Of a DNA stretch of 46,680 bases, positions 21,250-27,071 are shown piece after piece; the first letter of the stretch is position 1; every line of letters begins with the position of its first letter. The stretch is from an uncultured Candidatus Saccharibacteria bacterium (GTDB lineage: Bacteria > Patescibacteriota > Minisyncoccia > Minisyncoccales > GWA2-38-27): assembly GCA_964509645.1 (NCBI GenBank), contig CAZDXV010000004.1, forward strand, positions 1 to 46,680. The letters are read 5' to 3'. The notes beneath the pieces were generated by a model. The model saw only the letters and a program-made list of their open reading frames with translations, searched no databases and was not told where the DNA came from. Made by a program: the position numbers and the translations under genes.

Positions 21250-21276
21250 TTATCACTCTTGACATTAGACTGCTAA
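21250..21276 (+). promoter_or_regulatory. CIRCE operator overlapping the -35 box
   Basis: TTATCACTC-TTGACATTA-GACTGCTAA versus consensus TTAGCACTC-N9-GAGTGCTAA; directly upstream of hrcA. Confidence 0.85.
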
Positions 21277-21296: not shown

Positions 21297-21980
21297 ATGC
21301 CCATTACAAAAAGACAAACAGAGTTGCTTAATAGGCTAATTGAAGAATATGTAGAAACGGCAAAACCCGTAAGCTCAGAGCTTTTAAAGAAAAAATGTAA
21401 GCTGGAAGTATGTCCGGCTACCGTAAGAAACGAAATGCAAGATCTTACAAAGAAAGGGTATTTAAAGCAGCCTCATACTTCAGCTGGAAGAGTACCCACC
21501 AATAAAGCTTACAGGCACTTTGTTAAGGACTTGATAAATGAAGAGGAAGATTTCTTTTTAAAAGATCTTCAGATATTAAAAAGAGAAACAAAAGACATTT
21601 TCAGGCTTGCCGAGCTGACAACAAAGCTTTTGTCCTCGCTTTCTTCCGGAATAGCTTTGACCTATCTTTCAGAAAGGGATCTTTTGTGGGAGGATGGATG
21701 GAAAGATGTTTTTTCTTATCCTGAGTTTGAGGATAGGAAGTTCAGAAATGATTTTATTAAAGCGGTAGAAAGAATGGAATCCAAGATAAAAGATTTAGAA
21801 GGGCCTAATGTCCAGGTGTATATAGGACGAGAGGGATCTTTTCTAGAATCAAGCGAGATGAGCTTGATTGCGTCAAAACGCAGCAAAGCTGTTATGGCCG
21901 TATTGGGACCTAACAGAATGACATATAAAAAGAACATAAAGGTTGTATTGTCTTTAACTAAAATATTAGAGGATTTTTAA
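21297..21980 (+). CDS. hrcA: heat-inducible transcription repressor HrcA (short form)
   Basis: PVSS, ATVRNEM..L, QPHTSAGRVPT, VLGPNRMTY. Confidence 0.9.
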   Translation: MPITKRQTELLNRLIEEYVETAKPVSSELLKKKCKLEVCPATVRNEMQDLTKKGYLKQPHTSAGRVPTNKAYRHFVKDLINEEEDFFLKDLQILKRETKDIFRLAELTTKLLSSLSSGIALTYLSERDLLWEDGWKDVFSYPEFEDRKFRNDFIKAVERMESKIKDLEGPNVQVYIGREGSFLESSEMSLIASKRSKAVMAVLGPNRMTYKKNIKVVLSLTKILEDF

Positions 21981-22432
21981 TGAAAGAAGAAGATATCGAA
22001 AAAAAATATTTAGAGGGATGGAAAAGAGCTCAGGCAGATCTTATCAATTACAAAAAAGAAGAGTCTCAAAGACTGACCAATCTTTCAAAATACATAAAAG
22101 AAGAATTTATTCTTGAGCTTCTTCCGGTATTGGATAATATATATTTAGCCGAAAAAGAGCTTACAGCCAAAGAGAAGAAAAACCAGTGGGTCAAGGGATT
22201 TTTGAAGATAAAAGACCAGCTTTTAAATATTCTAGAAAAAGAAGGAATAAAAGAAATGAACTGTTTGGATAAAAAGGTAGACCTTAAGCTGCATGAGATA
22301 ACAGGAGAGGTAGAGTCCGAAAAAGACCCGGAAACCATAGTAGAGGTTGAGAAAAGAGGATACGAGATAAACGGCAAGGTTTTAAGACCTGCCAAAGTAA
22401 AAATATCTAAAAGGTCGGATAAAAGCAATTAA
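21980..22432 (+). CDS. grpE: nucleotide exchange factor GrpE
   Basis: RAQADLINYKK, LLPVLDN, GYEINGKVLRPAKV. Confidence 0.92.
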   Translation: MKEEDIEKKYLEGWKRAQADLINYKKEESQRLTNLSKYIKEEFILELLPVLDNIYLAEKELTAKEKKNQWVKGFLKIKDQLLNILEKEGIKEMNCLDKKVDLKLHEITGEVESEKDPETIVEVEKRGYEINGKVLRPAKVKISKRSDKSN

Positions 22433-22466: not shown

Positions 22467-22901
22467 ATGCCTTTAGTTCCATGGAGACCCTTTAGAGAGA
22501 TAGACAGGTTCTTTGATGACTGGGACAACGACAGAAGCCTTTTTTCAGAGCTTCCTGAAATGAGGGTTCCAAGAACCGATATTTATGAGACAGAAAAGGA
22601 TGTTGTAGCCAAGGTAGAGCTTCCCGGATTGAACCCCGAAGACATAGACGTCGAGGTAAAAGACAATGTTTTGATAATCCAGGGCAAAATGGAAGAGAAG
22701 AAAGAAGAGAAGAAGAAAGGATATTTCAGAAAAGAAATCAGCAGGGGCTTTTACAAGAGATCTTTGCCTTTACCTGTAGAGGTAGAAGACAAGAAAGCCA
22801 AAGCTGATTACAGAGGTGGTTTGCTCTCTGTTGTAATTCCCAAAGCAAAACCTGTAAAAGAAGAGAAAAAGGGCACAAAAGTAAAAGTAGAATCCAAATA
22901 G
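22467..22901 (+). CDS. Hsp20/alpha-crystallin small heat shock protein
   Basis: PRTDIYET, ELPG, FYKRSLPLP, ADYRGGLLSVVIPK. Confidence 0.92.
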   Translation: MPLVPWRPFREIDRFFDDWDNDRSLFSELPEMRVPRTDIYETEKDVVAKVELPGLNPEDIDVEVKDNVLIIQGKMEEKKEEKKKGYFRKEISRGFYKRSLPLPVEVEDKKAKADYRGGLLSVVIPKAKPVKEEKKGTKVKVESK

Positions 22902-22971: not shown

Positions 22972-24843
22972 ATGTCAAAAATACTAGGAATAGACTTGGG
23001 CACAACATTCTCCGCCATGGCTGTTATGGAGTCGGGCGAGCCCAAAATAGTAGAAAACCAAGAGGGAACAAGAACTACTCCCTCTGTTGTAGCTATTAAC
23101 AAAAAAGGGGAGAGACTGGTAGGAGTTGTAGCTAGACGTCAGCAGATTACTAATCCCAAAGATACAATATTCGCTACCAAAAGACTAATCGGAAGGAGGT
23201 TTTCCGACAAAGACATTCAAAAAGACAAAGAGCGCCTTCCTTACGAGATAAAAGAGGCCAAAGACGGAGGAGTTGAGATTAAAATGGGAGATAAGTGGTT
23301 AAGACCTCCTGAGTTCTCGGCTATGATCTTGCAGAAAATGAAACAGGATGCAGAACAAAAATTGGGTGAAAAGATAAAAGATGTTGTTATAACCTGTCCC
23401 GCCTATTTTGACGATTCCCAAAGAAAAGCCACTAAAGTAGCGGGAGATATAGCGGGGCTTAATGTTAAAATGGTCTTAAATGAGCCTACAGCGGCAGCCT
23501 TGGCTTACGGATTGACTAAAAAGGGAAACGAGAAGGTTCTTGTTTACGACTTTGGAGGGGGAACTTTTGACGTTTCTATTCTGGATATTCAAAAAGATCC
23601 TGATACTGTTGAAGTTGTCGGCGTAGGAGGAGATTCTCATCTGGGAGGAGAAGATTTTGACAGAAAAATAATGGACTGGATTATTGATGAATTCAAAAAA
23701 GACCAAGGAATAGACATTTCCAAGGATCAGCTTGCTCTTCAAAGAGTAAAAGAGGCAGCAGAAAAAGCAAAGATAGAGCTCTCTGCCACAATGGAAACAG
23801 AGATAAATATACCCTTTATTACATCTGACTCTTCAGGCCCTAAACACTTATACCTCAAGCTTACGAGAGCTCAGCTGGAGAATCTAGTCAAAGAATTTAT
23901 CGACAAATCCATAAACCTTACCAAAGAGGCCTTAAAAGAAGCTAATCTGGAAACCAAGGATATAGATGAGATAGTTTTAGTCGGAGGACAAACAAGAACC
24001 CCGGCAATTCAGGAAGAAATTAAGAAGCTTTTTGGAAAAGATCCTAATAAAACAATCAACCCTGACGAAGTTGTGGCTATCGGAGCTGCTGTTCAGGGAG
24101 CTATTATGGGAGGAGACGCCAAAGAGGTTCTTCTCTTGGACGCCACTCCTCTTTCTTTGGGAATTGAAACTCTTGGAGGAGTAAATACGGTTCTAATTCC
24201 CAAAAACATTACCTATCCTACCAGTAAAACGCAAATCTTCTCTACGGCAGCTGATAGCCAGACCTCAGTAGAGGTTCATGTTCTCCAGGGAGAAAGACCG
24301 ATGGCTAAAGACAACAAAACATTAGGCAAGTTCATTTTAGACGGAATACCTCCGGCTCCAAGAGGAACGCCTCAAGTAGAGGTAACCTTTGATATTAATT
24401 CCGACGGTATACTGAATGTTTCGGCCAAAGACAAGGCCTCGGGTAAGTCTCAATCAATAAGGATTGAAGGATCTGTTGGAATGTCTGACGAGGAAATAGA
24501 AAAGCTAAAAAAAGAAGCTGAAGCCCACGCAGAAGAAGACAAGAAGAAAAGAGAGCTTATTGAAGCCAAAAACAAAGCAGACAGTTTGGTTTACAGTACA
24601 GAAAAAACAATAAGGGATGCAGGAGACAAGATAGATAAAAATCTTAAAGAAGAGGTAGAAGGAAAGATAAAAGAGGTTGAAAAAGCTAAAGAATCTGAAA
24701 ATCCAGAAGAGATAAATAAAAAGATAGAAGAGCTTTCTCAGGCAATACAAAAGATTGGAGCTCAAATGTATCAGCAGAACAACCAAAACCAAGAAAAAAA
24801 AGAAGATGATAACACAGAAGAAGGGGAGTATAAAGAAAAATGA
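22972..24843 (+). CDS. dnaK: molecular chaperone DnaK
   Basis: [43 protein letters not shown]. Confidence 0.98.
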
Positions 24844-25895
24844 AGGACTACTACCAAATCCTAGGCGTTTCCAAAGAGGCTTCCCAGGAAGAGATTAAGA
24901 AGGCTTTCCATAGATTGGCTCACAAACATCATCCTCATAAAGGAGGAGACGAAAATAAATTCAAGGAAATCAACGAGGCCTATCAGGTGCTTTCGGATAA
25001 AAACAAAAGATCCCAGTATGACCAGTTTGGCTCCGCACCGGAAGGACAGGGCTTCAATTGGCAGGATTTTTCTTCTCAAGGCATGGGTTTTGAGGATTTT
25101 GATCTAGGGGACATCTTTGGAGACGTTTTTGGTTTTGGAAGAAGATCTCAAAAGAAAGACTTTAAAAGAGGAAAAGATATTAGAATAGACATAGAAATTC
25201 CCTTAAAAGACACCCTTAAAGAAACTAAAAAAACTATCTCTTTAAAGAAGTTTGAAACCTGCTCCAGGTGCCAGGGAAAAGGGGCAGAGCCCGGAACTTC
25301 AGTCAAAGAATGCTTTTCTTGCCGCGGTACGGGGAGAGTCCAGCAGGTAAGAAGAACTTTTCTTGGATCTATAACTCAATGGAGTGTTTGTCCTGAATGC
25401 CAGGGTGAAGGATACAATCCAGAAAAACCTTGCAATGTTTGTTCTGGAGAAGGAAGAGTGAAGAAAGAAGAAGAAATTACTATAAATATTCCAGCTGGTG
25501 TAGATACAAATCAAATATTAAGAGTTGATAACAAAGGAAATGCAGGAAGAAAAGGAGGAAAGCCGGGAGACCTCTATATCAGAATATTTGTAAAACAAGA
25601 TCCTCACTTCGAAAGAAAAGGGGATGATCTTTATACTTCAGCTGAAATATCTTTTTCTCAGGCAGCTTTGGGAGATAAGATAGAAATTACTACGTTAGAA
25701 GACAAAAAAATAGAGCTTAATGTGCCCTCTGGCACTCAGTCAGGCAAGATACTAAGAATATCAAACAGAGGAATTCCTCATTTTTCAGGATACGGAAGAG
25801 GAAATCTTTATATTTTCTTAAAAGTAAAAACTCCTCAAAAGCTTACAAGAGAGCAAAAGAAACTCCTAAAAGAGTTAAAAGAAAAAGGGTTGTAG
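24840..25895 (+). CDS. dnaJ: molecular chaperone DnaJ (class A; HPH in place of HPD)
   Basis: J-domain, G/F region, four CxxCxGxG motifs, C-terminal domain. Confidence 0.95.
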
Positions 25896-25937: not shown

Positions 25938-26011
25938 GCGCCCATAGCTCAGCTAGGCAGAGCACCGGCCTTTTAAGCCGTGGGTCGGGGGTTCGATTCC
26001 CTCTGGGCGCA
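25938..26011 (+). tRNA. tRNA-Lys(TTT), CCA not encoded
   Basis: gcgccca/tgggcgc acceptor stem, loop cTTTTaa, GGTTCGATTCC T-arm. Confidence 0.92.
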
Positions 26012-26018
26012 CAGAAAA

Positions 26019-26095
26019 GGGCCCATAGCTCAGTTGGCTAGAGCGCGTGTATGGCATACACGAGGTCGCGAGTTCAAGTCTCGCTGGGTCCACCA
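26019..26095 (+). tRNA. tRNA-Ala(GGC)
   Basis: G3:U70 pair, anticodon loop atGGCat, encoded CCA. Confidence 0.95.
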
Positions 26096-26129
26096 AATTA
26101 GAACTTTCTCTCAAGAAAATGGCTGTTGT

Positions 26130-26270
26130 TTACAGGGGACTTTTAATATTTTTAAGATTTGGATTTGTTACTTGAGTATAGATTTGTGTTGTTCGGATAT
26201 TTCGATGACCTAAAAGCTCTTGTACGTATCTAGTATCAATACCGTTTTCTAACAAATGTGTTGCGAAGCT
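26130..26270 (-). pseudogene. C-terminal fragment of a tyrosine recombinase (integrase)
   Basis: [46 protein letters not shown]; box II with catalytic Tyr; N-terminus absent. Confidence 0.9.
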
Positions 26271-27071
26271 GTTTATCTGCCAGTTAACATGGAACTTTAT
26301 CAAAAGGTTTCAGACAACATTTGGAATATTATAAAAGAATTTTCTCCCAAAGCCGAAAAAGTTTCAGTAGATGAGGCCTATCTTGATCTTTCCCACTTAA
26401 GCTTTAAGGAAGCGGAAAAAATAGGAAAAGAAATTAAAAATAAAATAATTAAGAAAGAAAAACTTACTTCTACTGTCGGAATAGGACCGAATAAACTGAT
26501 ATCTAAAATAGCATGCTCCGAGGCCAAGCCTGACGGGTTTAAGATTATAATCCCTTCTAAAGCTAAGGGCTTCCTTTCTCCTTTGCCAATTAAATCTTTG
26601 CCCGGCATAGGACCTAAAACCGCAGAGAAACTTAAAAGTTTTAAAACCATTAAAGACCTTAGATCTTTAAATCGAAAAGAGCTCCAAAGAAGTTTAGGAA
26701 AAAACGGCCTTTCCATTTACGAGAAAGCAAGAGGAATAGACAAGAGAGAAATTAAAGAAAAAAGAGATGTAAAATCCATAGGCAAAGAATACACCTTTTT
26801 AAGAGATACCAGAGATCCGCAAGAACTTTTTTCTCGATTTGAAAAAATTATTTCAAGCGTATCTTTAGAGATAAAAGAGAGAAATCTTTCTTACAAAACC
26901 ATAACAGTTGTTTGCCGTTTTTCGGGGTTTGAAACCCATAGCAAGTCAAAAACCTTCAAAAAAACAAAGGATTTAAAACTTCTTAATAAAGAAGCTAAAA
27001 AGCTTTTTTTAAAGTTCATCGTAGAAAACCTTAAACCAATTCGATTAATCGGATTAAGGGTTAAAATTTAA
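26265..27071 (+). pseudogene. dinB: 5'-truncated DNA polymerase IV
   Basis: SVDEAYLD, GIGPNKLISKIA..KPDG, LPGIGPKT, little-finger domain; N-terminal DMDAFF catalytic motif missing. Confidence 0.85.

Follow-up and report, generated by a model that had tools for sequence, protein, structure and literature searches.

The stretch of DNA analysed here (the window) comprises 46,680 nucleotides of contig CAZDXV010000004.1 from an uncultured Candidatus Saccharibacteria bacterium (assembly GCA_964509645.1; GTDB lineage Patescibacteriota; Minisyncoccia; Minisyncoccales; GWA2-38-27), and carries a compact heat-shock operon in the order hrcA-grpE-hsp20-dnaK-dnaJ, with all genes identified by profile searches on the + strand. 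The HPD aspartate of the J-domain and its arginine partner on DnaK are textbook invariants of the Hsp70 system. In the window, where dnaK and dnaJ are both intact, the loop of DnaJ reads HPH and the arginine position of DnaK is occupied by methionine. The features of the operon are as follows.

21250..21276, + strand: CIRCE-like inverted repeat, 2 mismatches to the CIRCE consensus, 21 bases upstream of hrcA
21297..21980, + strand: hrcA, heat-shock repressor, 227 amino acids (PF01628, E 1e-11; PF03444, E 1.2e-5)
21980..22432, + strand: grpE, nucleotide exchange factor, 150 amino acids (PF01025, E 2.6e-33)
22467..22901, + strand: Hsp20 small heat-shock protein, 144 amino acids (PF00011, E 2.6e-20)
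22972..24843, + strand: dnaK, 623 amino acids (PF00012, E 2.6e-238, profile positions 1-599 of 599)
23470..23472, + strand: dnaK codon 167, ATG (Met), in the context VK-M-VLNEP; Arg167 in E. coli
24840..24843, + strand: ATGA, the dnaJ start overlapping the dnaK stop, by direct sequence reading
24840..25895, + strand: dnaJ, 351 amino acids, class A (type I) build (PF00226, PF00684, PF01556)
24930..24938, + strand: CAT CCT CAT, dnaJ codons 31-33, the J-domain loop His31-Pro32-His33; H33-P34-D35 in E. coli

By its gene order and the CIRCE-like repeat upstream, both of which are present, the operon is of the ordinary HrcA/CIRCE heat-shock type; 3 of 100 shuffled sequences also gave a match to the consensus of the repeat. 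The ATGA overlap suggests translational coupling of dnaK and dnaJ. The window DnaJ presented a J-domain at residues 3-61 (PF00226, E 4.2e-24), a zinc-finger region at 141-205 (PF00684) and a C-terminal domain at 114-332 (PF01556), and its translation contained a G/F stretch past residue 64 and four CxxCxGxG repeats. Residues 1-611 of the window DnaK aligned to the E. coli DnaK chains 7kzi_A, 7krw_C and 5nro_A. In the source genome (616 kb, 35 contigs, 98% complete), the profile search for J-domains returned a single match, the window DnaJ, and the window DnaK was the only true Hsp70; three other matches to the Hsp70 profile, of 17-42 bits in open reading frames (ORFs) of about 340-350 amino acids, are presumably other actin-fold proteins.

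In the alignment to the E. coli chains, the window DnaK numbering equals that of E. coli up to residue 183, with a shift of +1 thereafter, and therefore Met167 lies opposite Arg167 of VKRIINEP. The HPD tripeptide that marks class A DnaJ is thus HPH in the window, and the arginine at the interface of the nucleotide-binding domain (NBD), the linker and the beta part of the substrate-binding domain (SBD-beta) is Met; both states had been read in a preliminary description of the locus, and both were confirmed by sequence reading and by alignment with E. coli. In 14 DnaKs with a replaced Arg167 (hereafter switched, as are the DnaJs with a replaced HPD aspartate), the residues K70, E171, D193, T198 and D200 in window numbering were invariant; they correspond to K70, E171, D194, T199 and D201 of E. 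coli, which are ATPase-site residues. The interdomain linker was also kept, with the LLLD motif (window L387, L388, L389 and D390) invariant. The preliminary description had moreover drawn attention to KVAGDIAG in place of KDAGRIAG. This second charge change near the interface is present, as V156 and D159 of the window DnaK (23437-23448; D156 and R159 in E. coli), and it falls outside the coupling described below: since relatives of either state carry Val or Ile at 156 and Glu at 159, it is a lineage-wide trait and was rejected as part of the switch. Judged from these sequences, it is older than the change at 167 and independent of it.

The two positions were compared in a master table of 190 rows, 162 of them with both sites, which combined five sets of relatives and two pairs found by pattern. 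All 42 pairs with a non-Asp DnaJ (37 HPH, 3 HPY and 2 HPN) had a residue other than Arg at DnaK 167, namely Leu in 18, Met in 13, Gln in 9 and Ile in 2. The 120 HPD pairs had Arg in 117 cases and Lys, Ile and Leu in one each, the Ile and the Leu coming from a targeted scan only; within the five sets of relatives, 118 of 118 HPD pairs had Arg (117) or Lys (1). With five switched pairs found later, the totals reached 47 of 47 non-Asp DnaJs beside a non-Arg167 DnaK, and 171 HPD DnaJs with Arg or Lys, composed of the 118 above, 33 from metagenomes and 20 among relatives of two exceptional genomes. Among all pairs read, none of the 47 non-Asp DnaJs stood beside Arg167. The His and Pro of the loop were kept in 47 of 47 switched DnaJs, so that the third residue alone differed. 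These counts, together with an origin in at least five independent lineages, bear out the proposal that both contact partners changed together in an otherwise intact operon, and they contradict independent variation of HPH and non-Arg167. The Met described for the window proved to be one solution among several, as Leu, Ile and Gln also occur at 167, and His, Tyr or Asn in DnaJ.

In the family of the window, all 39 species genomes were searched with the window DnaJ and DnaK, each gene being found in 37 and both sites being read in 36; no match was obtained in G003 and G053, and G015 has HPN with DnaK residues 129-289 unassembled. The 16 HPH genomes had Met (11), Leu (3) or Ile (2) at residue 167, the two HPN genomes both had Met, and all 18 HPD genomes had Arg. 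One natural genus carries exactly HPN with a non-Arg167 DnaK. In 16 further genomes of the same order, 14 were read (G038 and G040 were left out), giving 13 HPD/Arg pairs and one HPD/Lys pair. The switched DnaKs of the family formed one clade, with support of 81 in a 48-row tree and 88 in a 166-row tree by the Shimodaira-Hasegawa-like approximate likelihood ratio test (SH-aLRT), and therefore represent a single event, kept through 12 genera. Beside these, G009 (L049/L015 and L076) harbours two dnaK-dnaJ operons, both HPD/Arg, of which the first is the sister group of the switched clade while the second groups with its own genus, with the extra copy on a 3.4-kb contig, and the operon of G001 (L008), a member of the window's genus, groups with the genus of G009 (support 95). 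This pattern could be due to duplication with differential loss, to transfer or to mis-binned contigs; a spare dnaK-dnaJ copy would ease a switch in two steps.

Other lineages were reached by scanning one genome per species with the DNA pattern for [M/I/L/F][V/I][L/I/F]NEPTAA, which gave at least 117 stretches, and by sampling 25-40 relatives per index genome through family accessions or index proteins. In a second Patescibacteria clade, in which one record is named Candidatus Jorgensenbacteria, 5 of 5 HPH genomes had Leu167 and 16 of 16 HPD relatives had Arg167 (31 genomes searched and 30 loci read, 9 with one or neither gene readable). Similarly, in a third Patescibacteria clade, with two records named Candidatus Buchananbacteria, 14 of 14 HPH genomes had Leu (5) or Gln (9) and 14 of 14 HPD relatives had Arg, with 3 of the 31 genomes searched being incomplete; the nine Gln167 genomes indicate that Gln also partners HPH. 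In Bacteroidales, G060, G062 and G063 were HPY/Leu167 and G061 was HPH/Leu167, each of the four with one Hsp70 and one J-domain protein, and the 33 relatives read at both sites, from 40 sampled, were all HPD/Arg. Four later finds belonged to Bacteroidales as well, three of them HPH/Leu (G193, G198 and G199) and one HPY/Leu (G200). The unswitched relatives in this order include bearers of an unusual J-domain subtype with KWHP-x-[RK]W; in this subgroup the J-domain exceeds the usual length by about 5 residues and has the loop KWHP-D-[RK]W-V-x-G-T, and the HPY variants arose inside this subtype. Finally, the Planctomycetota species G058 combined Leu167 with KYHPHVAKGD, and all 22 of its relatives read at both sites, G164 included, were Arg/HPD. 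Among metagenome contigs, searched with an alignment of switched J-domains, the best 80 of at least 599 stretches gave 34 readable pairs, 33 of them HPD/Arg and one HPN/Met; one further locus had HPH without a dnaK, and 45 lacked one or both sites.

The pattern scan also returned, among its at least 117 stretches, Hsp70-like proteins 28-41% identical to the window DnaK, with Leu, Ile or Phe at the Arg167 position (loci L100, L104, L111, L116, L118, L120, L125, L141, L143, L144, L159, L166, L173, L177, L181, L183, L194, L195 and L202), whose records name Myxococcota, Planctomycetota, Methanomassiliicoccales archaea, SAR86 and others. Their 8-kb loci showed no J-domain gene, and they may be paralogues working without the canonical J-domain contact.

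A purely genealogical explanation has to be weighed here, in which the changes would fall on the same branches of the tree by chance, with no link in function, as might be argued from the window's own family, where all 18 switched pairs trace to one branch and count as a single event. As to the INDEPENDENCE of switch events, the non-Arg state needs 9 changes on the 166-row DnaK tree, at least 8 of them forced by strongly supported branches, and the DnaJ state needs 7 changes on the same tree. Eight independent contrasts in residue 167 were available; DnaJ changed the same way in 6, in the opposite way in none, and was unchanged in 2 (sign test, p 0.031). Constraining the 36 switched Patescibacteria DnaKs to one clade was rejected (delta log-likelihood 609; approximately unbiased test, p-AU 2.9e-6), and therefore Patescibacteria account for three events. 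Two origins within Bacteroidales, needed by the tree, were not retained, as a single clade was not rejected (p-AU 0.092); two origins within the third Patescibacteria clade appeared on the large tree only, its own tree giving one clade with support of 94, and each of these groups was counted once. On this conservative count, the double switch arose at least five times, in three Patescibacteria clades, in Bacteroidales and in one Planctomycetota species, and possibly six times. These separate origins, spread over three phyla by record names, speak against coincidence by descent. So does G058, whose dnaK and dnaJ lie on different contigs and whose nearest relative, G164, is 91% identical in DnaK and 89% in DnaJ, yet carries Arg167 with KYHPDNAKGD.

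Moreover, a column scan between switched and unswitched groups revealed that DnaK 167 changes in all 6 events compared and DnaJ 33 in each of the 5 that had a full-length DnaJ, every other column changing in at most 3; these two positions alone recur in every event, and together with the separate origins this leaves coincidence a very slim chance. Changes at further positions differed between lineages. In the window's clade, I169L was found in 14 of the 17 switched sequences and in 0 of the 33 unswitched ones, and V394A in 17 of 17 and 1 of 33. The extra changes of Bacteroidales (E217A/T, L390I/V, L392T/S, D477S/N and A480V/I) are without exception located at or next to the J-domain contacts E217, L391 and L392 listed in PMC13012618. 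As additional parts of the rule, I169L and the Tyr-to-His change before the HP of DnaJ were rejected as lineage-specific, and a joint loss of Asp481 with Arg167 was rejected because the position of Asp481 is Asn in nearly all lineages of both states. Asp393 (E. coli numbering) was invariant across all lineages compared.

The main alternative is one of decay. It holds that the DnaJ loop no longer stimulates DnaK, as in the 'type IV' or pseudo J-domains, and that Arg167 became free to drift, so that the double change would be a loss of function. The window DnaJ falls under the sequence definition of 'type IV', that is, a non-conservatively replaced HPD (PMC13254874), and section 7 of the same review describes J-domains with neither HPD nor HPE as 'presumably nonfunctional'. 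In E. coli, changes at R167 or its partners raise basal ATPase activity and blunt stimulation by the J-domain (PMC7289447), and three of the switched clades are Patescibacteria with reduced genomes. On the other side, the ratio of non-synonymous to synonymous substitution rates (dN/dS) within the switched clade was 0.019-0.094 for dnaK, 0.037-0.143 for dnaJ and 0.024-0.073 for the J-domain, values that are to be read with synonymous sites saturated save in the closest pairs and that show strong purifying selection on both genes. In 12 switched sequences, 35 of 70 J-domain columns were invariant, H31 and P32 included. The preserved His and Pro in all 47 loops, the narrow set of replacements (His, Tyr or Asn in DnaJ; Leu, Met, Ile or Gln in DnaK) and the intact class A build of DnaJ likewise contrast with decay, and in the window genome and G060-G063 the proteins concerned are the sole J-domain protein and the sole Hsp70. 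Drift would not give six changes in step and none in the opposite direction, and in E. coli a double change at these two positions restores function (PMC13012618). Decay is thus considered improbable, and the compensating DnaK change, the purifying selection and the status as sole J-protein speak against extending the presumed inability of 'type IV' proteins to act on Hsp70 to the window DnaJ.

It is therefore regarded as probable that in the switched pairs a working contact free of charge has taken the place of the Asp35-Arg167 salt bridge, and that these pairs are the natural counterpart of the E. coli suppressor pairs. In E. coli, DnaK R167H suppresses DnaJ D35N (PMC5519331, PMC7289447), and R167A, non-functional by itself, regains function when combined with D35N, in vivo as well as in vitro (PMC13012618). 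The same two positions change together in the laboratory pairs and here, and in the former the double mutant works where the single mutants fail; the differences are that the E. coli states are laboratory alleles, whereas those described here are wild type and fixed in whole clades, and that Asn is combined there with His or Ala, whereas here mostly His or Tyr faces Met, Leu, Ile or Gln. The idea of a compensatory change, put forward in the preliminary description, is thus supported by the comparative evidence and by published suppressor genetics.

Several points weigh against this interpretation. The sequences compared stem almost entirely from metagenome-assembled genomes, and HPN is reported in section 7 of PMC13254874 to abolish the ATPase stimulation of canonical Hsp70. 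The collection scan, with its at least 117 stretches, was blind to Gln and other polar residues at 167, and in four of the five sets the index genomes had been picked out by a hydrophobic residue at 167, which leaves only their relatives as an unbiased sample. In addition to its HPH DnaJ, the switched Bacteroidales genome G198 (L473; Leu167) has a short ORF for a second J-domain protein, this one with HPD (LRFHPDRYASAG, a 185-amino-acid open frame). Furthermore, G064 (Roseicyclus record) carries HPD with Leu167 and G059 (Chloroflexi record) HPD with Ile167, with one Hsp70 each, and therefore the coupling is not absolute in the direction from DnaK to DnaJ: the strict co-occurrence that had been predicted holds for every non-Asp DnaJ and gives way in these two single genomes. 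Three further cases of HPD with Leu167 were uninterpretable, G194 being a frameshifted assembly with two dnaK copies, and the site in G195 and G196 either lying no more than about 50 bases from the end of a contig or belonging to a second copy. All 20 DnaKs read among the relatives of G064, and all 20 among those of G059, have Arg. As single-genome states, these two may be young intermediates, segregating variants or errors. That changes in DnaK alone were seen, and changes in DnaJ alone never, suggests that DnaK changes first and DnaJ follows.

Errors of sequencing, assembly or binning at both codons would be a trivial cause of the double change. The metagenomic nature of the genomes lends this some weight, as do the two HPD exceptions, in which single-base errors are possible, and no piece spanning codon 167 (23470) was found among the contigs of the same study that were checked. 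However, a 172-base contig from a second sample of that study spans 24860-25031 with 0 differences, and the HPH codons are therefore covered, so that, of the two codons whose confirmation in reads was foreseen in the preliminary description, that of DnaJ was confirmed by an independent contig and that of DnaK was not. Both codons also lie on one contig, 1.46 kb apart. A sequencing error is excluded because the states are conserved across 18 species of the family, 16 with HPH and Met, Leu or Ile at 167 and two with HPN and Met, and synonymous variation occurs at both sites (CAT and CAC at DnaJ 33; ATG, TTA, TTG, ATA and ATT at DnaK 167). An artefact is accordingly given next to no probability. 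Across lineages, the codon changes were mostly of a single base: AGG/AGA to ATG/ATA, CGT to CTT/CTC, CGG to CTG and CGR to CAR in dnaK, and GAY to CAY/TAY/AAY in dnaJ.

Downstream of dnaJ, two tRNA genes were found, tRNA-Lys(ttt) at 25938-26012 and tRNA-Ala(ggc) at 26019-26095. A listed ORF at 25980-26213 overlaps both of them and is probably no real gene. The ORF at 26256-27071 (271 amino acids), beyond the tRNAs, resembles by eye a DinB-like DNA polymerase of the Y family with its N-terminal part missing.

The canonical counterpart of the window pair is the E. coli DnaK-DnaJ J-domain complex (PDB 5NRO). The window pair resembles it in being operon partners, in the full-length alignment of DnaK to 5nro_A, in the class A DnaJ, and in the preserved loop His/Pro, linker Leu390-392, Asp393, N170, E171 and T173, and departs from it in that the Asp35-Arg167 ion pair is His against Met. 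In canonical DnaK, Arg167 forms ion pairs with Asp393 of the linker and Asp481 of SBD-beta, and the HPD Asp competes for this Arg, starting the release of SBD-beta (PMC7289447). The Asp35-Arg167 ion pair has been called critical for ATPase stimulation, and the simulated allosteric paths in the same paper run through His33 and the linker and not through D35-R167 (PMC13012618). In the switched pairs, the J-domain would still dock at the NBD/linker/SBD-beta interface and would still trigger ATP hydrolysis. The canonical Arg167 would be latched by Asp393 and Asp481 and pulled off by the HPD Asp; without the Arg there would be no latch, and an Asp opposite Leu, Met or Gln would bury a charge that has no partner, and would be replaced by His, Tyr or Asn, the three residues that are one first-base change away from the Asp codons (GAY). 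The signal would then be carried by the unchanged parts, that is, His31, Pro32, helix II and the Leu residues of the linker.

Among known natural deviations from HPD, two kinds come closest. The HPE proteins DjlB and DjlC, which work with HscC, are alike in combining a natural third-residue deviation with a dedicated Hsp70 (PMC13254874, PMC10410713), and unlike in that the carboxylate is kept and that accessory class C proteins with a divergent Hsp70 are involved, not the housekeeping DnaJ/DnaK. Similarly, the 'type IV' or pseudo J-domain proteins, such as DNAJB13 (HPL) and Pam16, have a recognisable J-domain with a non-conservative HPD change (PMC13254874), but they occur together with canonical J-proteins, their Hsp70 is unchanged, and they are believed not to stimulate it, whereas the window variant is the sole J-protein and its Hsp70 has changed at the contact residue. 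A co-evolution study found its top signals at other contact pairs and regards D35-R167 as a contact established by mutagenesis (PMC5519331). A 2023 survey, which covered about 280,000 J-domain proteins, excluded from its curated set those that lack a full HPD; it discusses HPE only, at about 1%, and the supplement may list other variants (PMC10410713). According to a 2026 review, HPE alone seems tolerated, and whether other deviations arose by accident or by selection 'remains enigmatic' (PMC13254874). No report of natural HPH, HPY or HPN in a housekeeping DnaJ, or of a natural non-Arg167 DnaK, was found in the full-text literature, subscription journals being outside the scope of the search.

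Taken with the evidence for a functional contact, these comparisons suggest that the outcome of the E. coli suppressor experiment has been reached in nature as well, at least five times and in the housekeeping pair of DnaK and DnaJ. They also indicate that the pair can do without the salt bridge as such, provided that DnaK and DnaJ both change, which bears directly on current models of the J-domain trigger (PMC13012618, PMC7289447), and they offer a clear example of compensatory evolution between two proteins, at times encoded by unlinked genes. Annotation rules that discard non-HPD J-domains would mislabel the sole DnaJ of whole clades. A switched pair is probably mismatched with canonical partners, and the switched pairs are ready-made candidates for orthogonal chaperone/co-chaperone pairs. 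The fuller proposal, that two single-base changes gave rise, at least five times, to a second, charge-free coupling of HP-His/Tyr/Asn with Leu/Met/Ile/Gln167 and that this coupling is functionally orthogonal to HPD/Arg167, is held to be about evenly balanced. If it is true, an orthogonal DnaK would ignore the foreign HPD J-domains of phages, plasmids or a host cell, an orthogonal DnaJ would fail to drive canonical Hsp70s, and the switch would be reachable mainly where a single J-protein is served by DnaK.

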